Origin: Thermoproteus tenax Kra 1
GTDB taxonomy: Archaea; Thermoproteota; Thermoprotei; Thermoproteales; Thermoproteaceae
Direction: 5' to 3'
Assembly (NCBI RefSeq): GCF_000253055.1
Contig: NC_016070.1
Span: forward strand, 1,320,001 to 1,352,000
DNA: 32,000 bases
Below, one piece after another: positions 3,708 to 32,000 of this stretch. Position numbers and translations under genes: made by a program. Within the stretch, counting starts at the first letter, position 1; the number at the start of each line of letters is the position of its first letter. Under the pieces are notes generated by a model. It was not told the origin of the DNA. It saw nothing but the letters and a program-made list of their open reading frames with translations, and did not search any database.

Positions 3708-4556
3708 GTGAAGAGCTATTGGGCGCTGATAAGGGGCGAGCACGGCGTTCTCACCGCCGTATCCTCTGTGGCCTCCTATCTGTTAGCGGGCGGCCGCTCA
3801 GCGCTCTATGCAGGTCTGATCGGGGGCAGCGCCTTTTTGGCCGAGGCAGCTCTATTCGCCCACAACGATCTGGCGAACCAGGCCGAGGACAGAGTCAATA
3901 GGCCAAACGCGCCCTTAGTGACAGGCAAGGTGAGCCAACGCGCTGCTAAGGTATTAGTCGTAAGCAGTGCAATGGCCGGACTGGCGATGGCATCGGCGCT
4001 ATCTGCGCCGGCCCTTTTGATATACATCGCTGCCTTGGCCCTAGGATTCTTTTATAATATTAAGGGCAAGAGAGTGCCGTTGTTGGGCAATCTGATAGTC
4101 GCTTTTCTAACCTCAATGGTGTATTTATACGGTATGGAGGCTGCGTATTCGCAAAATATCTATCTTCTCTTATTGTTTATTGCATCATTTTTAGCAAACA
4201 TTGGCCGTGAATTCGTCAAATCAGCGATAGACTATCACGGCGATCGAGCTGTCGGTATAAGGACCGTTGCCGCGATATTGGGACCTGGGAGGGCCGCCTC
4301 CTTGGGCGCCTATTTCACTCTGGCTTCTGCCTCGGTCGGGCTCTACCTATTTTACGTCCTCGTTAGGGCGGAACTATTAGTTCTAGCAGCGGGGGTGGCC
4401 ATCACCACAGTGCTCCTCTTATACTATTCTATTATCTGCCTAAGGGGATCGTGGAGTAAGTACCGGACAGGCACTCTGTTTGCGTTCGGAGTAACCCTTG
4501 TAACATTGTTGCTACAGGGCATCCTCACTGTTATGATCGGAAGCTTTACCCCTTAG
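3708..4556 (+). CDS. UbiA-family prenyltransferase, probably digeranylgeranylglyceryl phosphate synthase
   Basis: 282 aa and polytopic. Contains the Asp-rich motif HNDLANQAEDRVNRPNAPLVTG, characteristic of UbiA/DGGGP synthases. GTG start. Confidence 0.75.
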   Translation: MKSYWALIRGEHGVLTAVSSVASYLLAGGRSALYAGLIGGSAFLAEAALFAHNDLANQAEDRVNRPNAPLVTGKVSQRAAKVLVVSSAMAGLAMASALSAPALLIYIAALALGFFYNIKGKRVPLLGNLIVAFLTSMVYLYGMEAAYSQNIYLLLLFIASFLANIGREFVKSAIDYHGDRAVGIRTVAAILGPGRAASLGAYFTLASASVGLYLFYVLVRAELLVLAAGVAITTVLLLYYSIICLRGSWSKYRTGTLFAFGVTLVTLLLQGILTVMIGSFTP

Positions 4557-4583
4557 GTCTGAGATAGGCTCTGCGGGTTTATC

Positions 4584-4639
4584 TTCCACGGCAGGGCGAC
4601 GAAGAGAGAGTCTAATAGCGCGCTCCATACGGCAGATGG
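4584..4639. repeat. 56-nt copy (55/56 identical) of the core of the 7171-7460 RNA-like locus
   Basis: ttccacggcagGgcgacgaagagagagtctaatagcgcgctccatacggcagatgg matches 7224-7279 with a single g/a difference (4595 vs 7235). Same orientation, 2.6 kb apart. Confidence 0.9.
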
Positions 4640-4662
4640 CTCTCGATGATGGACATAGGATG

Positions 4663-4681
4663 GCCACAATTTTATTGTGGC
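4663..4681. promoter_or_regulatory. Perfect 8-3-8 palindrome overlapping the TATA region of the HAD gene
   Basis: GCCACAAT-TTT-ATTGTGGC. The AT-rich centre lies about 25 nt upstream of the ATG at 4697. Candidate operator or bidirectional promoter. Confidence 0.5.
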
Positions 4682-4696
4682 TAACGTTGTCGTGAT

Positions 4697-5392
4697 ATGA
4701 CTATAGCCTTAGTCGACCTCGATGGAACATTGATACCTCTGGAGGCTTGGGATCCCGTCTTCTACGAGCTGTCGTCTATAATTGCGTCTAGGGCCGGCGT
4801 TGAGCCTCAGGATGTGTGGGGGCTTGTTAAGGCATTACATTATCAGCTCATGAGGAGGTTCGACCCTAAGGCGTTCGATTGGCAGTACTTGTTCGAGTCT
4901 GTGGGAAGTAGCCTGGGCATATTCGATATTCCCAACATCGAGGATATTCTTTTGAAATACGTGGACAACTTCCCCGTGAACGAGGGAGCCTTTGAGCTTC
5001 TTAGAGATCTCAGATCTCTGGGACTTTCACCTGTTATAGCCACCAACGGTCTGTATAGATATCAGCATATTGTAGTGGAGAGGTTGGGGTTCTCTAAATA
5101 TGTAGATGGCGTCCGCACGTCTGATGCCTACGGTTGTACGAAGAGCTGTAGTAGATTCTTCGAGGGGGCCTCGCTGGTTATTGGAGATAACCCCATCTTC
5201 GACGTATATTTCCCGAAGAAGTTCGGCGTGGCCACTATATTTATCGGCGAGTGGAACAGAGCTGTGAGAAAATACAGCGAACTACTGGGGATAGATGCGG
5301 GCATCGTTAGGCCCGACTACATCGCTGCAGACCTTATTGAGGCCCGCGCCGTCGTCGCGCGGTTCAAGGCCTGGGAGAGGTCGGCCCCATGA
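4697..5392 (+). CDS. HAD-superfamily hydrolase
   Basis: The N-terminal motif I is present (MTIALVDLDGTLIP, DxDGT), and a late GDN motif is present (VIGDNPIFDV). Confidence 0.75.
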   Translation: MTIALVDLDGTLIPLEAWDPVFYELSSIIASRAGVEPQDVWGLVKALHYQLMRRFDPKAFDWQYLFESVGSSLGIFDIPNIEDILLKYVDNFPVNEGAFELLRDLRSLGLSPVIATNGLYRYQHIVVERLGFSKYVDGVRTSDAYGCTKSCSRFFEGASLVIGDNPIFDVYFPKKFGVATIFIGEWNRAVRKYSELLGIDAGIVRPDYIAADLIEARAVVARFKAWERSAP

Positions 5393-6171
5393 TTCTGTTA
5401 AATTTGACGATCCCACCGCTTCTGATCATATACTTGGGGGCCTCCGTGCTCTCCAATTTGTCGCTCCCTGCTCCCCCTATGTCGCAAGTGGCCGCCTTCT
5501 GGCTGAACGGAACGCCCATACCCTCTTGGGTCGTCGGCAACAGATTGTACGTCCTACAGCTGGGCCAACCGGCCTACGTTGAGTACGTGCCCCAATATTA
5601 CAACTCGACGGGGCTCTACGAGTTAGCTCTCAACGCAACGGCTGGAGCAGTAATAATGGCGCCGCCGGGAATCATAGTCGACGTTGAACCTGAGAACTAT
5701 TCCGTGATCGCTATAAATAGATCCGGCCTTTTTATATACATTAAGGCGCCTCGCGTCAAGCTGAATTTTTCTCTAATAGCGATCGTTACTACTTCGACGA
5801 CCACCAAGGGCTCCGTCGTAGCGCCTCCTCCTACGACCTCCCAACAGAGCGTTACGTCGAGCACCACAAGGGGAGGCAACGCGGCCTCGTTAATACCCTA
5901 TGCGGTCGGCTTAGTCGTTGTGGCGGCCATCTTGTCTCTTCTTCTGCTCAGAAGGCGCAGAGACTGCGTAGGACTGGGAGAAACCGATCTGAAGATTCTG
6001 AGGGCTCTACAGGATGGAGGCGGACGCGTTAAAAGGTCAGAGCTTGGGCAAAGATTGGGGCTTCCTGCATCGACGCTCCACAAACATCTCCACAAGCTCT
6101 CCAGGATGGGCTACGTACGTTTAGTTACAGAGCAAGATGGACAAAGGGTGGAGTTAGTCAAGAAATGTTGA
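5389..6171 (+). CDS. Membrane-anchored winged-HTH protein (extracytoplasmic N-terminal domain, Ser/Thr-rich linker, one TM helix, cytoplasmic MarR/TrmB-like wHTH)
   Basis: N-terminal hydrophobic segment with 8 N-x-S/T sequons. The linker is TTSTTTKGSVVAPPPTTSQQSVTSSTT and the TM helix is LIPYAVGLVVVAAILSLLLL followed by RRRRD. The C-terminus is LGETDLKILRALQDGGGRVKRSELGQRLGLPASTLHKHLHKLSRMGYV. ATGA overlap with the HAD gene. Confidence 0.65.
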   Translation: MILLNLTIPPLLIIYLGASVLSNLSLPAPPMSQVAAFWLNGTPIPSWVVGNRLYVLQLGQPAYVEYVPQYYNSTGLYELALNATAGAVIMAPPGIIVDVEPENYSVIAINRSGLFIYIKAPRVKLNFSLIAIVTTSTTTKGSVVAPPPTTSQQSVTSSTTRGGNAASLIPYAVGLVVVAAILSLLLLRRRRDCVGLGETDLKILRALQDGGGRVKRSELGQRLGLPASTLHKHLHKLSRMGYVRLVTEQDGQRVELVKKC

Positions 6172-6262
6172 TTCAGACGGCTGAAAAAAGCTCATCCTCG
6201 CAGCTCAGCGGATTCATCACCTGTAGAGTGTTCTATTGAAGTTATTTTATCTATAGCTTATA

Positions 6263-6814
6263 TTGCCTAACATCCGCTATAGTCAGGTGACCTTCGCCAA
6301 ACCCTGCCTGATGCTCTTCTCGTGCCCAGGGGACGGGGGAGACACGCTGGTGCTCCACAGAGGCAGAGCGCTCCAGGCCTCCAAGGCGGACCCTCTGGTC
6401 AAGCTGTACGGGGCGTTGGACACGGCGGTCGCCTACGCCCACAAGGCCGCAGGCCTCCTCCCCCGCCCGCAGGCCAGAGTCATGAGGCTCCTCGCCTTCT
6501 CTATGACGGAGCTCGGCTTCTACGTGGCCACGGGCAGAGCGCTCCATCTGGACAACGCCGTGGAGCTCTACAGGAGGGCCCTCAAGCTCGCCTACTCGGC
6601 CAGCGGCGATCCCCCGCGCAGCTGGATAGCTTGCTCCTCGCCCGAGTGCTCGGCCGTGGACGAGGCGAGGGTGTGGGCGAGGTGGGCGGAGAGGAGGGCT
6701 GTGGCGCTCGGGGAGGCCGAGGCGGCGAGGCTTCTGAACCAGCTCTCCAACCTGATGTTCGAGGTCATGGCCACCCTCCCGCACATAGAGTACAGATCGA
6801 GGCCTCTGAGGTGA
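6263..6814 (+). CDS. ATP:cob(I)alamin adenosyltransferase, PduO type
   Basis: GDGGDTLVLHRGRALQASKADPLVKLYGALDTAVAYA matches the PduO/MMAB N-terminal pattern (GD.G.T.L..G....K.D.R..A.G..DE). The true start may be Met17 (6311). The gene is about two-thirds G+C, so all frames are open here. Confidence 0.75.
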   Translation: MPNIRYSQVTFAKPCLMLFSCPGDGGDTLVLHRGRALQASKADPLVKLYGALDTAVAYAHKAAGLLPRPQARVMRLLAFSMTELGFYVATGRALHLDNAVELYRRALKLAYSASGDPPRSWIACSSPECSAVDEARVWARWAERRAVALGEAEAARLLNQLSNLMFEVMATLPHIEYRSRPLR

Positions 6815-6927
6815 TCGATTTCGACGTTAAAGCGGTGTGATGCCGGGGTAACCCGCCACTCTCATCCGCCCCACACGGGGGTGTCGGTGTGGCGTCTCTA
6901 TCTACTTGCTTGTTTAAAAGCTTTTGT

Positions 6928-7137
6928 TCAAAACTCCACTATGTTTTTGCCCTTCTCTTTCAATTCGGCGAGTATTGCGTCGGCCTTGCTGATGGGTAGC
7001 CTTATGGTATAGAGATATCCAGAGAGGCGCGCCTTGAGTTTGGCCACGTTCTCCTCTGGAAACCTCTTTACCCTTATCTCCTCCGCCTTTTCGGCATACT
7101 TCCTCCATATTTCTACCAAGAACACCTCCTTAGGCAT
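6928..7137 (-). CDS. rpl38e: 50S ribosomal protein eL38
   Basis: 69 aa. ...KARLSGYLYTIRLPISKADAILAELK aligns with eukaryotic RPL38 ([26 protein letters not shown]). The TATA aaataataaaaag lies about 27 nt upstream of the ATG. Confidence 0.85.
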   Translation of the reverse strand: MPKEVFLVEIWRKYAEKAEEIRVKRFPEENVAKLKARLSGYLYTIRLPISKADAILAELKEKGKNIVEF

Positions 7138-7170
7138 GCCCGAGGATAAGTTAAGACTTTTTATTATTTA

Positions 7171-7460
7171 CGACTGAAGGTCCCGCCATTCAAGTCGGGG
7201 GTGGATTTAAGCTTGCCACATTTTTCCACGGCAGAGCGACGAAGAGAGAGTCTAATAGCGCGCTCCATACGGCAGATGGTCCCCGCCGCGATGCCCGCCC
7301 CAACCGCGGCCTCCCTCGTTAGGGCCGAGTGCCGCCCGGCCCCATGCCCGATAAGCCCGCGCCGGAGGTATCTTGGATGCCGATGAAGGCATGGGCGAGG
7401 AGAAACCCCGCCCTTTAGGGCGGGGAGGCGGAGCGCGGCCATGTGCATATAGGGCGGCAC
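7171..7460 (-). ncRNA. GC-rich structured RNA-like locus A (unknown family; paralog of 31491-31821)
   Basis: About 290 nt at roughly two-thirds G+C between two AT-rich promoters. It contains several perfect 8-9 bp helices (see findings). A TATA-like GATATAGG lies 25-32 nt upstream of 7460 on the minus strand. The only ORF is an implausible Arg/Gly/Pro-rich 111-aa frame. The strand is inferred from G-U pairs in the paralogous hairpin. Confidence 0.5.
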
Positions 7461-7497
7461 GCAAAATATTTTTAAATGGCCTATATCGCGTTGGGTC

Positions 7498-7827
7498 ATG
7501 GAATACGTCTATGCGGCTCTGTTACTACACTATGCAAAACAGGAGATAAGCGAGGAGAATCTGACTAAGGTCCTCCAAGCAGCTGGGCTTCAGCCAGATG
7601 AGGTTAGAATCAAGACGCTAGTCGCCGCCTTGAAGGAGGTTAACATCGATGAGGCCGTAAAAAGCGCCGCCTTCGCTCCAGTTGCAGCCGCCCCAGCTGC
7701 GGGCGCTCCAGCCCAAGCTCAAGCAGCCGGCCAACAACAAGCTGCTGGAGGCGAAAAGAAAGAGGAAGAGGAGAAAAAGGGTCCCAGCGAGGAGGAGATC
7801 GCTGGATCCCTCGCCGCACTGTTCTAA
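7498..7827 (+). CDS. rpl12: Ribosomal stalk protein P1 (aP1/L12e)
   Basis: [26 protein letters not shown]... is followed by an Ala/Pro/Gln hinge and an acidic tail ending [12 protein letters not shown]. The TATA tttttaaat lies about 25 nt upstream. Confidence 0.9.
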
Positions 7828-12723: not shown

Positions 12724-13311
12724 ATGATCGACCTTCGCTACCTTAAGCTTCTGACGTTCTTAGCTATGAGCCAGGCGCTGGCAGGAAGGCGTTATATCTC
12801 ATCTAAATTGGGGATGGGGGAGGGCGTCGTCAGAGGGCTCATAGAGTTGGGTAGAGGTCTGGGGCACATCTCAGTAAATAGAGCGGGCGCGAAGATAACA
12901 GACAATGGAATACGATATTTAGCCGAAGTGATCTCGCTGTGTAGACTGAAGCCTCTGGCCTACACTAACAAATTCGCTGAAAAACTGTGCGGAAGAGTGT
13001 GCGTTGCATTCTCTCTTGGTATAAAGATAGACAATATAGTAAAGTTTAGGGATAGCGTAGTCCGTAGAGGCAGTTGCGGCATTATAATCGCCCAATTGAG
13101 AGATAACAACATATACATCCCGCTTGCAGAAATGCGGCTTGAGGATCTCGATCCAGAGATGGCCGGCTCAATTAAGGGGCTCCTATCAAGGGAGGATTTC
13201 CTTATAATCTCGTGTGGCGATAACTTCGGACAAGCCCTGGCCCCTCTCGAGGTGGTCTGCGAAATGATGATAGAACCCGGCCGATCCGATGAAGTACGGC
13301 ATCCTATCTGA
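12724..13311 (+). CDS. Hypothetical wHTH-domain protein with an uncharacterised C-terminal domain
   Basis: 195 aa. The N-terminal segment LKLLTFLAMSQALAGRRYISSKLGMGEGVVRGLIELGRGLGHI is wHTH-like. The C-terminal domain is not recognised. Confidence 0.5.
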   Translation: MIDLRYLKLLTFLAMSQALAGRRYISSKLGMGEGVVRGLIELGRGLGHISVNRAGAKITDNGIRYLAEVISLCRLKPLAYTNKFAEKLCGRVCVAFSLGIKIDNIVKFRDSVVRRGSCGIIIAQLRDNNIYIPLAEMRLEDLDPEMAGSIKGLLSREDFLIISCGDNFGQALAPLEVVCEMMIEPGRSDEVRHPI

Positions 13312-13315
13312 TTTC
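13261..13315 (+). ncRNA. C/D box sRNA candidate overlapping the 3' end and stop codon of the 12724-13311 gene
   Basis: The C box AUGAUGA (13264-13270) is perfect. It is followed by a 12-nt guide UAGAACCCGGCC and a degenerate D' GAUC (13283-13286). A degenerate C' AUGAAGU (13289-13295) is followed by a 12-nt guide ACGGCAUCCUAU and a perfect D box CUGA (13308-13311). The flanks GAA/UUU can pair. Box-to-box length is 48 nt. Confidence 0.6.
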
Positions 13316-13570
13316 TCCTCGCGCCCAGCTCCAGCGTTCCTGCCGCGAGACTCTTGAGTTAGCCTACTGCGAGGGGCGCGAGAGCTGTCGCGAGGCAGAG
13401 GGAGTCCGAGGACAAGTCGGTAGATGCTGTAAGGGCTCGCTCACCGAGAATGAGCATAGGCGGTCAGATAGGGCGCCATAAGAGGCCTCATTGAAAACAA
13501 CAATCATCAATATAGATCTACATATATAGGCTAAGATAACAGATTTCAATGTTCTTAGAGCATATCCACA

Positions 13571-29015: not shown

Positions 29016-29206
29016 CCAAGCACTACTTGCTTTACTGCTTGGACAAGCTGATTGAGCATCGAGTCGGTTTGGTTTCTGAAGGACAATATGCTATCTAACG
29101 AACCCTTTATTATTCCGGTCACCGTTAAGGCGAAGGCGACAAATATCCCTATGGCTAAGAACAATAACAGCGTCTCTTCCACAAATATAGAGCCTCTTCT
29201 CTTCAT
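29012..29206 (-). CDS. Small protein with a class III (type IV pilin-like) signal peptide
   Basis: 64 aa. MKRRG/SIFVEETLLLFLAIGIFVAFAL has a basic N-terminus, Gly, then a hydrophobic helix, as in archaeal prepilin/archaellin-like precursors. Confidence 0.45.
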   Translation of the reverse strand: MKRRGSIFVEETLLLFLAIGIFVAFALTVTGIIKGSLDSILSFRNQTDSMLNQLVQAVKQVVLG

Positions 29207-29306
29207 GTCTAATTATTGAAAGATTAAATACACCTTATTAATGAGGGGTGCGCCGAGAGATCGATGAATCAATTGCTTAATTTATGCGGTTTCACTCGCG
29301 TGACCC

Positions 29307-29538
29307 GGGCACCTCCTCCATCTGCTCGCAGGCGGGGACTGGTGAGGGGCTTGCCCTTAAGTCGCTTCTCTGCCTCTACTGATACAGATGGAGGCGGGGG
29401 GGGGGGGGACATAGCCGCCGTGATAAACAACGAAAGGAGGGTGCCGGAGGTGCTCGCGGAGGGCCGCGCGCACTCCGGCCCCAGGGCCTCGCGCCCAAGG
29501 TATTGTGCCGATTAGGGCGCAAGCAAGGAGGAGGTCCC
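29307..29538 (+). ncRNA. GC-rich structured RNA-like locus D (unknown family)
   Basis: A 12-bp terminal helix (29307-29319 / 29527-29538, one bulged C) encloses four hairpins plus an inner 5-bp closing helix. One hairpin is a 15-bp stem (29443-29479). The TATA cttaatttatg (29276-29286) is centred about 26 nt upstream of 29307. A G-U pair in the AGGGG-CUUG-CCCUU hairpin favours the plus strand. Confidence 0.45.
29396..29408. repeat. G13 homopolymer tract
   Basis: Thirteen consecutive G residues were counted directly, inside locus D. Confidence 0.95.
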
Positions 29539-29589
29539 AGAGCGCGATGCCGGTAGTAATCGACTAGGGATAGATGTTTAATGTGGCCT

Positions 29590-31437
29590 CTATAGTTGTT
29601 TATACGTCGGTCTCTCCGATAATAATCTCGGCATATATAACGGCCTCTTGGGATAGCCTTTGATCTCGCTTTTAATAAGCGATATCAGCTCTTGATGCGT
29701 CATCTGACGCTGCGTGCCGCCTCTTATCCTCACCGTGAGAGTCTTAGATTCGACCTCCTTATGCCCTATGACGACAATATACGGTATCCATTCCCTTTCG
29801 GCGTCGCGTATCCTCCTTGAAAGCGTCTCGTTTCTATCGTCGATATCCGCTCTGATATCCGCCCCTTCGAGCTCGTCGGCAAGCTTAAGCGCCTCCTCCA
29901 GTTGCTCTCTATTGATCGGAATTATTCTTACTTGAACGGGCGAGATCCAAGTCGGAAGCCGCGGCACCTGTCCCCTTTTCTCCATGAGGGCTGCTGTATC
30001 AAACAACGCAAAGAGGTATCTCTCAACGCTGCCCAATATGGCCGTATGGATTATTACAGGATATCTTATCTTATTTTCATCGTCTATATATTTGATATTG
30101 AACCTCATCGCGTTGCCGACATCTATCTGGAAGGTCGCAATCTCCCTCGGCCGTCCCAACTCGTCTATTATGTGGAACTCCACGTTGAGAACCCAGTAGT
30201 ACTTCTGCTCTGGCAGTATCCTCAGCAATATTGGCTTGCCCTCGCGCTTGGCCAACTCAATTAGATAGTCCTTGTATCCCCTATAGAACTCGGCTGTTAC
30301 GTTATATAATGAGACGTAATCTCGTCCAATTTTTCTTATTTCTTCAAATATTTTATTATGTAACTTATAGGTTACCTCAATTGCTTGTTTTAAATCTTTT
30401 GTGAAAATATGAAGGTCTGGCATATAAAATCTCCTTAGTCTAAACAGGAGAACAGTTTCGCCGGGTTGTTCGTATCGGTACGAGTCCGCCACTTCCAACA
30501 TTCCGAAAGGCAGATTCCTGTAGCTCACGACCCAGTCTCTCACCATGGCAAACTGTTGGAAACATGCGGCATAGCGGAGTATCGATTCAGTGTCTGCTTC
30601 TACTATGTACAGACGTTCCCCGAATAGTTTAGCATGGGTCTCAATGGGTCTCTCGCTCAGCTTGAACATATTAGTGCCTCTTATCTTGAATATGGGTATT
30701 CCGAGAGACTTCGCGACTTGGTAGGCGTAGTCCTCCACCAGTTCCATCATTATTGTGGCATCAGGCCCATATCTCATGTGGCCCACATCGGACATAGGTT
30801 CCCACTCGAAGCCAAAACGTTTTACATACTCTATGTATTTTGGCTCGCCGCCTGGCAACTCCCTTTTGAATACCTCCTTATCTACCAGAGCTTTTAGATC
30901 GGGGTATTTATCCAACGGATAGTCGGCTGGATTGTACTCTTCACCCTCAGGCGACAGAATAAGATAGATATCAGGAGCTGCGCGCTCGGCTTGAGCTTGC
31001 GGCCTTCCGCTGAAAAGCTCCGGCTTGTACGAGTAAGATCTGCTGAGCTCAGAAAGAGGATGCCCTATACATTTTATTTCAAATGATTTATAATATCCAA
31101 ATGGAGCTTTTAACACTTTAAATTGATTAAATCCATTTAATATATCGAATAACTTATTCAATATTTCTCTTGAGGTATAGGGCTTTGCTAAATTGGGCGA
31201 TAGATGGGCGTATGGATATATTACTATTGTTTGAGCGTCCACCTTCTTAGCAACCTCAACAATATCTCTTGAGATAGCCGCAAGATACGCCTCGTCGGGC
31301 TTATCGCCCTCCTCAACAGTAATAAACGCAACGAGGGCATTATCGGCATTGCCTGAGACAGGGTCATCCCTGATATCTAACGCCGGCTCCTTTGGCTCCC
31401 ACCTAAAATATTGGGCATGTATCAGGAGCACGCGCAT
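29590..31437 (-). CDS. thrS: Threonyl-tRNA synthetase, full-length archaeal form with N-terminal editing domain
   Basis: Class II core motifs and a C-terminal anticodon-binding domain are present. The ORF-track start at 31566 runs through the GC-rich upstream block. Met44 (31437, MRVLLIHAQYFRWEPKEP) is the typical archaeal ThrRS start and lies about 28 nt from the TATA at 31460-31470. Confidence 0.9.
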   Translation of the reverse strand: MRVLLIHAQYFRWEPKEPALDIRDDPVSGNADNALVAFITVEEGDKPDEAYLAAISRDIVEVAKKVDAQTIVIYPYAHLSPNLAKPYTSREILNKLFDILNGFNQFKVLKAPFGYYKSFEIKCIGHPLSELSRSYSYKPELFSGRPQAQAERAAPDIYLILSPEGEEYNPADYPLDKYPDLKALVDKEVFKRELPGGEPKYIEYVKRFGFEWEPMSDVGHMRYGPDATIMMELVEDYAYQVAKSLGIPIFKIRGTNMFKLSERPIETHAKLFGERLYIVEADTESILRYAACFQQFAMVRDWVVSYRNLPFGMLEVADSYRYEQPGETVLLFRLRRFYMPDLHIFTKDLKQAIEVTYKLHNKIFEEIRKIGRDYVSLYNVTAEFYRGYKDYLIELAKREGKPILLRILPEQKYYWVLNVEFHIIDELGRPREIATFQIDVGNAMRFNIKYIDDENKIRYPVIIHTAILGSVERYLFALFDTAALMEKRGQVPRLPTWISPVQVRIIPINREQLEEALKLADELEGADIRADIDDRNETLSRRIRDAEREWIPYIVVIGHKEVESKTLTVRIRGGTQRQMTHQELISLIKSEIKGYPKRPLYMPRLLSERPTYKQL

Positions 31438-31490
31438 TAGGTGATTCCTCGCTCCCTCGTATATAATTTTGGCCCCTTGTGGCGCCCGGC

Positions 31491-31821
31491 CTCCGTGTGG
31501 GCGGCCCCAGGTGTACTCGGAGCGGGGCCCAAGCACGCCGAGGATGCCAAGAGAGGTGGTGAACATCCAGCCGCCGTAGATTTCGTATGAACCTCTATCC
31601 GCTCCACTGTGGGAGTCTCACCGGTTGCCCTCTCCGGGGCTGATGGGAGAGACCACGACTGGATGCCGCGGCGAAGCGGACATCGCGGCGGGGCACCCCA
31701 GCTGACCCCATCCCATTGTGTGAGAAATAAACTATCATCGACTCTTTCTTCATCGCTATGCCATAGAAGATGTGGCTTGCTTAAAATCCATCCCCGATTT
31801 GAAGGGCGAGGCTTTCGGTTG
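31491..31821 (+). ncRNA. GC-rich structured RNA-like locus B (paralog of locus A)
   Basis: The TATA tatataatttt (31460-31470) is centred about 26 nt upstream. 31740-31821 aligns with the reverse complement of 7171-7254 at about 78% identity. 31665-31697 aligns with the reverse complement of 7278-7310. The terminal hairpin 31795-31821 is maintained by G-U pairs only on this strand. Confidence 0.45.
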
Positions 31822-31953
31822 CAAGTTCACATCCAACGATCACTCGCCTAATGATAATATGGGCTGATGCCCTAATTCTCCTCAATACGACAAGTATACA
31901 ATCCTATCTTAAGTAGAAAGCTTTTATACTGGAGCGATTTGCCCTCTCAGCAA

Positions 31954-32000
31954 TGCAAGAAGCACGAGCAAAGTTGGGAAGCATCCCAGTCGTCGGAAAA
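31954..32000 (+). CDS. 5' end of an unidentified gene running off the right edge
   Basis: The ATG at 31954 (MQEARAKLGSIPVVGK...) lies about 26 nt downstream of the TATA gcttttatact. It is too short to identify. Confidence 0.35.

Follow-up and report, generated by a model that had tools for sequence, protein, structure and literature searches.

The DNA analysed here is a 32,000-nt stretch of the Thermoproteus tenax Kra 1 (Kra1) genome (NC_016070.1, positions 1,320,001 to 1,352,000; the window), and our subject is a 56-nt sequence (the 56-mer) that occurs twice in it, once in the spacer between the UbiA and HAD genes and once in the spacer between the L38e and P1 genes. Positions refer to the window; adding 1,320,000 gives the Kra1 genome position in the same orientation, and the published small RNA (sRNA) coordinates and the TTX gene table fit this numbering exactly. 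The L38e encoded here matches the T. tenax protein at 100% identity. The identities that the original prediction gave to the genes around the repeat (UbiA, HAD, wHTH, PduO and eL38) agree with TTX_1501 to TTX_1505. The 56-mer is the middle part of a non-coding module of approximately 145-160 nt, present in full at two sites, locus A and locus B. The features of the repeat family and of its neighbourhood are the following:

4584..4639, plus strand: copy 1 of the 56-nt repeat, within an isolated module fragment of about 60 nt in the UbiA-HAD spacer
7224..7279, plus strand: copy 2 of the 56-nt repeat, within the locus A module
7171..7315, plus strand: full module at locus A, the stretch common to locus B (nhmmer E = 1e-37)
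31660..31822, minus strand: full module at locus B, in the speD-thrS spacer
7316..7465, plus strand: tail of locus A, unique, 67% G+C, 150 nt, between the module and the P1 promoter
31475..31659, minus strand: tail of locus B, unique, 65% G+C, 185 nt, reaching the thrS promoter
4664..4680, plus strand: palindromic AT-rich box CCACAATTTTATTGTGG, the BRE/TATA promoter of the HAD gene, with position and spacing that match other local promoters
TTX_1501: UbiA
TTX_1502: HAD, leaderless, with its ATG at 4697
TTX_1503: membrane wHTH regulator
TTX_1504, 6311-6814: PduO-type cob(I)alamin adenosyltransferase
TTX_1505: L38e
TTX_1506: P1/L12

The two copies of the 56-mer are direct repeats 2.6 kb apart, both non-coding and identical at 55 of 56 positions, the sole mismatch being a transition (G4595 in copy 1, A7235 in copy 2). 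When the window was scanned with up to three mismatches allowed, the 56-mer was found at 4584-4639 and 7224-7279 only, and no match was obtained in any of 100 dinucleotide-preserving shuffles of the window, so that none is expected by chance. The near-identical direct repeat first read from the sequence is thus borne out. The core at copy 1 is GGCAGAGCGACGAAGAGAGAGTC. The heptamer CTGCCGT is present twice on the minus strand, as is the pyrimidine tract CTCTCTCTTC once, and the 8-nt palindrome AGCGCGCT was also confirmed; together with the palindromic AT-rich box beside copy 1, all of the small motifs originally described are present.

BLASTN aligned locus A to locus B (31819-31661) at 79% identity over 81 nt and at 82% over a further 34 nt; between these two blocks the locus B segment is 18 nt longer and could not be aligned. 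Copy 2 lies inside locus A, and a diverged third relative is present at locus B, as had been claimed. With nhmmer, copy 1 matched the module at 4580-4639 only, and its flanks have no significant similarity to either A or B. Both ends of copy 1 (4580 and 4639) fall inside the A/B module, leaving the three copies without common termini, and the homology borders of A, B and copy 1 are sharp. The tails that follow the modules are unrelated to each other, their local alignment being no better than that of shuffles. Neither the rest of the window nor 9.5 kb beyond it contained a further module copy.

Searched with a profile of the module, approximately 330 kb of DNA from other Thermoproteaceae yielded no match. 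In pattern scans, neither species-representative genomes (a set from which the T. tenax genome itself is absent) nor IMG/VR had a true match, and JGI metagenomes had chance matches only; the 23-24 nt matches from the metagenomes and IMG/VR lie in unrelated DNA and were rejected as chance. BLAST searches against phage records and plasmid records returned none. A viral or plasmid origin of the repeat was rejected, as no similarity was found in IMG/VR, phage or plasmid records. Judged by these comparisons, the family is low-copy, non-coding and, among the sequences searched, specific to T. tenax. The T. tenax genome paper lists only repeats longer than 300 bp, and the module family has consequently gone undescribed.

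All three copies lie in spacers that are longer in T. tenax than in its relatives. The UbiA-HAD spacer is 140 nt, versus approximately 30 nt or less, or overlapping genes, in seven related loci (six Thermoproteus and one Pyrobaculum; L003-L008 and L013). The L38e-P1 spacer is 360 nt, versus 117 nt in Thermoproteus sp. KM4324-17, where both promoters are recognisably homologous and have only about 50 nt between them. The speD-thrS spacer is 515 nt, versus 104 nt in Thermoproteus uzoniensis.

We compared 25.4 kb of the region with strains that are approximately 99.5% identical to Kra1, taken from public short-read assemblies. Coding DNA differed at 0.47% of positions. Four expanded spacers (those of copy 1, locus A and locus B, and one at 29016-29589) had 32 differences in 1352 nt (2.4%), a rate approximately five times that of coding DNA, while all other intergenic DNA had 4 differences in 1068 nt. 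By this measure, the T. tenax-specific expansions are the fastest-evolving DNA of the region. The most variable was the copy-1 spacer, with 7 differences in 105 covered nt; six of these are within the 56-mer and are clustered at its 3' end, which reads CCA-ATATCCG-ATGG in the strains and CCAT-ACGGCAG-ATGG in Kra1. Position 4595 is A in the other strains, as it is in locus A. Independent strain assemblies carry copy 1, and their contigs begin within it, 30-36 nt before the point where copy 1 leaves the Kra1 locus A sequence, as expected of a k-mer assembly graph where a second locus shares the sequence to that point. Locus B and its strain counterpart had 11 differences over 289 nt, among them a deletion paired with an insertion; nowhere else in the 23.6 kb compared are differences so dense, and the cluster lies in the unique tail and the 3' third of the module. 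The locus A tail had 4 differences in the 119 nt assembled, and strain contigs from the P1 side stop at 7379-7408, so at locus A the strain comparison covers the part on the P1 side of this point.

With moderate confidence, we read the 56-mer as a fragment of a species-specific, low-copy, non-coding repeat family located in expanded, fast-evolving spacers, and its identity as a sign of recency rather than of selection. Loci A and B would be older paralogues that carry the whole module and are 79% identical, and copy 1 would be a patch of approximately 60 nt of the locus A version, in the same orientation and 2.6 kb away. Such a patch may have arisen within the T. tenax lineage, when templated insertion or micro-duplication placed a short piece of A in the UbiA-HAD spacer; alternatively, copy 1 may already have existed as a patch, which short-tract gene conversion then homogenised with A in the lineage of Kra1. 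Because the copy-1 patch differs in strains that are approximately 99.5% identical, the identity of the 56-mer in Kra1 does not appear to be held by selection, and because the differences between these near-identical genomes are clustered and span several bases, they point to patch replacement or gene conversion rather than purifying selection. What would be expected of a tract of gene conversion or recent duplication was found here, namely sharply bounded near-identity, a diverged older paralogue and patchy differences among strains. Three explanations had originally been offered for the high identity: recent duplication, gene conversion or strong constraint. The clustered strain patches favour the first two, while the six differences inside the 56-mer speak against the third.

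Short-tract conversion and micro-duplication between dispersed repeats are familiar in prokaryotes, for instance between rRNA genes, tuf genes and insertion sequence copies, and short-patch recombination occurs in Sulfolobus. The T. tenax repeat resembles these cases in that nearby copies are near-identical while an older paralogue is 79% identical, strain differences come in patches, and the homology borders are sharp. It differs from them in that donor and recipient share only about 60 nt and in that the repeat is non-coding and without known function; further, the mechanism and direction of copying, like the lack of function, are here what we infer from the pattern rather than events that were seen.

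Several observations weigh against this interpretation. Conservation is highest in the 5' half of the module, GGCAKAGCGAYGAAGARAGAGTC; A and Kra1 copy 1 are identical there, and two strain contigs (L001 and L002) carry this region as far as they reach. At locus B there are no differences from the strain in 215 nt from 31740 upward, compared with the 11 in 289 nt below. The tails beside the module have 65-67% G+C in a window of 51% G+C. Two strain transitions in a long hairpin of locus B keep its pairing (A-U to G.U and G.U to G-C). The low copy number is a count of three in approximately 50 kb of sequence examined, not a genome-wide count. Finally, the patch at copy 1 may stem from conversion in Kra1 or from a complex change on the side of the other strains; either would be a patch event, and it would take an outgroup to tell them apart. 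A strain locus A with TACGGCAG, combined with a strain copy 1 with ATATCCG, would mean either A-to-copy-1 conversion in Kra1 or a copy-1 change in the strains.

The main alternative, which we consider possible but unlikely, is that A and B are unannotated paralogous small-RNA genes: the module would be their common 5' domain, and their G+C-rich 3' domains would differ. On this view copy 1 would be a truncated pseudogene or a minimal version, and the 56-mer would be part of a functional 5' domain, for example one for protein binding or target pairing. G+C-rich intergenic DNA in hyperthermophiles is a classical hint of structured RNA, and the composition of both tails is in keeping with this reading, as is the conservation of the 5' core across A, B, copy 1 and the strains. 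However, the strain divergence of these loci (2-4%, with indels, versus 0.47% in coding DNA) and the absence of the family from every related genome searched argue against it.

E-value scans with Rfam of 4400-7600 and 31200-32000 found nothing on the 56-mer or the module. The only Rfam match at gathering level in the window was PyrR205 (6838-6896, minus strand, 42.8 bits). PyrR205 is a Pyrobaculum-type H/ACA-like sRNA and lies between the adenosyltransferase gene and L38e; in Thermoproteus sp. KM4324-17 (L013, approximately 6900-6960) a sequence resembling it occupies the same place, below the Rfam threshold. Klein, Misulovin and Eddy reportedly screened hyperthermophiles for G+C-rich intergenic non-coding RNA (ncRNA) genes in 2002. 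The T. tenax loci resemble such genes, and HgcC in particular, in that G+C-rich intergenic segments adjoin the module and that the locus A tail has a weak HgcC (RF00062) match at 7365-7446 (E = 0.008 in a 3.2-kb search). They are unlike HgcC in that the score of 24 bits is far under the gathering score of 50, large parts of the model are missing, and the match is off the 56-mer. We rejected an HgcC identity as sub-threshold and resting mainly on one 8-bp GC hairpin.

No structural signal emerged from the folding tests. Folding of the 56-mer with its context was no better than that of shuffles on either strand (z-scores of -0.3 to +1.4), and loci A and B were also within shuffles (-0.5 to -1.2). 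The RNAalifold covariation term was unfavourable (+2.13); double changes affected 2 of 42 pairs, and the alignment, with three sequences (A, B and strain B), has low statistical power. Of the 11 pairs in a helix predicted at the left (upstream) end of A, 4 are lost in B, which also lacks an equivalent of the GAGCG/CGCTC hairpin in the 56-mer. In favour of an RNA, a GCCGCG...CGCGGC hairpin is kept in A and B, and the G.U pairs of the long locus B hairpin, whose pairing survives both strain substitutions, exist on this strand only.

Possible transcription signals were scored with a promoter matrix built from 28 local promoters, which recovers the HAD, L38e, P1, speD and thrS promoters. The AT-rich boxes of the divergent neighbouring genes could drive transcripts of A and B, scoring 9.4 bits (7150-7163) and 13.8 bits (31927-31914) on the strand of these loci, and a T5 run follows locus A at 7472-7476. 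However, another T5 run, at 7219-7223, falls between the candidate start and the 56-mer. The CCACAATTTTATTGTGG box, from which a short minus-strand transcript had been proposed to start, scored 7.7 bits on the plus strand and less than 6 bits on the minus strand, which is weak evidence on such a transcript. A candidate promoter inside the module, GGATTT(T)AAGC, was rejected with less than 6 bits in both orientations.

Archaeal C/D box sRNAs carry a C box (RUGAUGA) and a D box (CUGA) approximately 38-45 nt apart, internal D' and C' boxes, and guides of 10-12 nt. The module offers only ACGAAGA or AUGAAGA together with CAGA, CCGA or GGGA, 26 nt apart in A and copy 1. In an RNA-seq-based catalogue of 152 T. 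tenax C/D sRNAs, no entry matched strings from A, B or copy 1, while two entries matched the window exactly: TtesR131 (genome 1,326,164; 38,827 reads) at 6164-6226 on the minus strand and TtesR132 (1,333,258) at 13258-13320 on the plus strand. Rfam gave TtesR131 a weak sR11-like match only (19.7 bits) and missed TtesR132. A C/D or H/ACA sRNA was rejected for want of boxes and of a catalogue entry. No tRNA or transfer-messenger RNA is in the window. The permuted signal recognition particle (SRP) RNA of Thermoproteus was dismissed, as its published locus, between TTX_0683 and TTX_0684, is not in the window and Rfam gave no signal for it here; a type-T RNase P RNA likewise gave no Rfam signal. 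The original prediction had treated the 56-mer as a possible functional RNA core, and this is not supported: it has no Rfam match, it folds like shuffles, its predicted hairpins are not kept in B, and it is absent from the C/D sRNA catalogue.

Two other origins were tried and rejected. For a small protein-coding gene, one frame common to A and B can be followed by eye (a[ct]g aag ... ccc cgc cgc gat), and the other frames are broken by 1-nt indels between A and B; no open reading frame (ORF) is annotated in these gaps. The start is ATG in B versus ACG in A and copy 1, and the stop of B is lost in a related strain, leaving A and copy 1 without a start codon and the stop unconserved. In a database of 5.8 billion sequences, the locus A ORF matched only one orphan ORF call. 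An origin from the adenosyltransferase gene was considered in view of GGCAGAGCGCTCCA, which is found there twice and is like the 56-mer minus its middle; its score of 15 was reached by 19 of 60 shuffles.

A further reading joins RNA and mobility. The module may be the common 5' domain of T. tenax-specific small RNAs, or of mobile elements that resemble sRNAs, as do the miniature inverted-repeat transposable element (MITE)-like ones of Pyrobaculum calidifontis. These elements would seed new G+C-rich non-coding transcripts between promoters and stay similar through gene conversion, with the 56-mer as the part copied and exchanged. We regard this as speculative and rather unlikely.

It is also quite doubtful that the module is simply a decayed non-autonomous mobile element of that kind, one that inserts into unstable intergenic regions, with copy 1 as a truncated insertion. 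In P. calidifontis there are at least 15 copies of the sRNA elements (Lui et al. 2018, PMC6009581); their C and D boxes are close to consensus, and they are flanked by conserved inverted repeats. The T. tenax module is like them in coming from the same archaeal family, in being species-specific and inserted in intergenic regions that do not align with relatives, in the small-RNA size of its core and in its C-box-like AUGAAGA/ACGAAGA and D-box-like CAGA/CCGA sequences; its three copies in the approximately 50 kb examined would also fit. However, these boxes are degenerate, and their spacing of 26 nt in A and copy 1 is too close for a dual-guide sRNA. No terminal inverted repeats were found around the module or the 56-mer, the ends differ, those of copy 1 falling inside the A/B module, and the copies seen number only three. 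GGCTCT is present on both sides of copy 1, but the other copies have no consistent target-site duplication, and the T. tenax genome paper reports only five transposase ORFs or fragments. Because near-consensus boxes, inverted repeats and common ends are lacking, we did not file the module with the P. calidifontis elements.

We think it improbable that the conserved 5' core is a cis-regulatory DNA element of HAD, P1/L38e and thrS/speD, bound upstream of these genes by a chromatin protein or transcription factor. All three copies are promoter-proximal and in the same orientation to the downstream gene, and the core is kept while its surroundings vary. However, related species regulate the same genes without the element, a 79%-identical stretch of 140 nt is far longer than an operator, and the flanking genes have no common function.

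Archaeal attachment (att) sites are typically direct repeats of about 56 nt, but the idea that an integrated element occupies 4640-7223, with the two copies as its attL and attR, is effectively ruled out by synteny, the enclosed genes being housekeeping genes that are syntenic in Thermoproteus and Pyrobaculum relatives, and the segment has no integrase, no tRNA gene and no similarity to viruses or plasmids.

A check of synteny between the copies had been proposed at the outset, and in other Thermoproteus and Pyrobaculum genomes the genes for HAD, the wHTH regulator, the adenosyltransferase and L38e are in ancestral order beside UbiA and P1. The segment between the 56-mers is therefore not an inserted cassette. 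It holds L38e and an abundant C/D sRNA. The claim that recombination between the copies would excise the enclosed genes is formally correct, since the repeats are direct.

Returning to our favoured reading of a recently copied or homogenised fragment of a non-coding repeat, most likely ordinary repeat DNA, the finding as it stands matters little and documents a short, undescribed T. tenax repeat family. The 56-mer is long enough to break short-read assemblies and could mediate a TTX_1502-1505 deletion. If it were true that the module yields a discrete RNA, this would be a case of a hyperthermophile in which small-RNA genes arose and spread within a single lineage; existing T. tenax small-RNA and total RNA-seq data were used in PMC4644070 and PMC4731332.

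Further observations were made at and around these loci. Four strain contigs that come from the P1 side end in the G+C-rich locus A tail, at 7408 or 7379, possibly because of low coverage, a repeat or variants within the sample. Next to this point the strains have AGCTCCGCCC and Kra1 has AACCCCGCCC, and both changes result in a perfect alternative 8-bp helix with GGCGGAGC at 7426-7433.

TTX_1504 is 68% G+C and is oriented opposite to its orthologue in KM4324-17 (L013) and in L004-L006, with the flanking sRNA and L38e unchanged. This gene has a twin, TTX_0290, that is more than 95% identical (T. tenax genome paper), and the strain contigs L001 and L002 independently end at 6317, at the start of TTX_1504, as expected for a repeat. 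Flanking inverted repeats were not found at TTX_1504. In Thermoproteus sp. AZ2 (L007, 4404-7893), approximately 3.5 kb is inserted between the adenosyltransferase and wHTH regulator genes, and the orientations of L38e and the adenosyltransferase gene differ from both T. tenax and L013. The L38e/adenosyltransferase neighbourhood is a rearrangement hot spot in the genus.

On the thrS side, the spacer at 29016-29589, which runs from thrS to a DUF2204 gene, is 574 nt versus 242 nt in T. uzoniensis. Part of it is up to 75% G+C, its sequence is unrelated to the module, and it contains a G13 run (29396-29408) that has fewer bases in the sister strains. Inside locus B, the thrS start is preceded by an in-frame extension of 43 codons (31438-31566, minus strand). 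Gene calls in the strain assemblies use this extension (658 aa), while orthologues have 612-615 aa, and in a sister strain a 1-nt deletion brings the upstream small ORF of locus B into frame with it. The extension is probably artefactual, arising from a G+C-rich sequence that is poor in stop codons. A T. tenax-specific, AT-rich segment of 90 nt (31823-31913, 40% G+C) separates the locus B module from the speD promoter. Its plus strand has the box-like motifs AATGATAA and CTGATGCC; the sister strains carry the segment unchanged, and the C/D sRNA catalogue does not list it.

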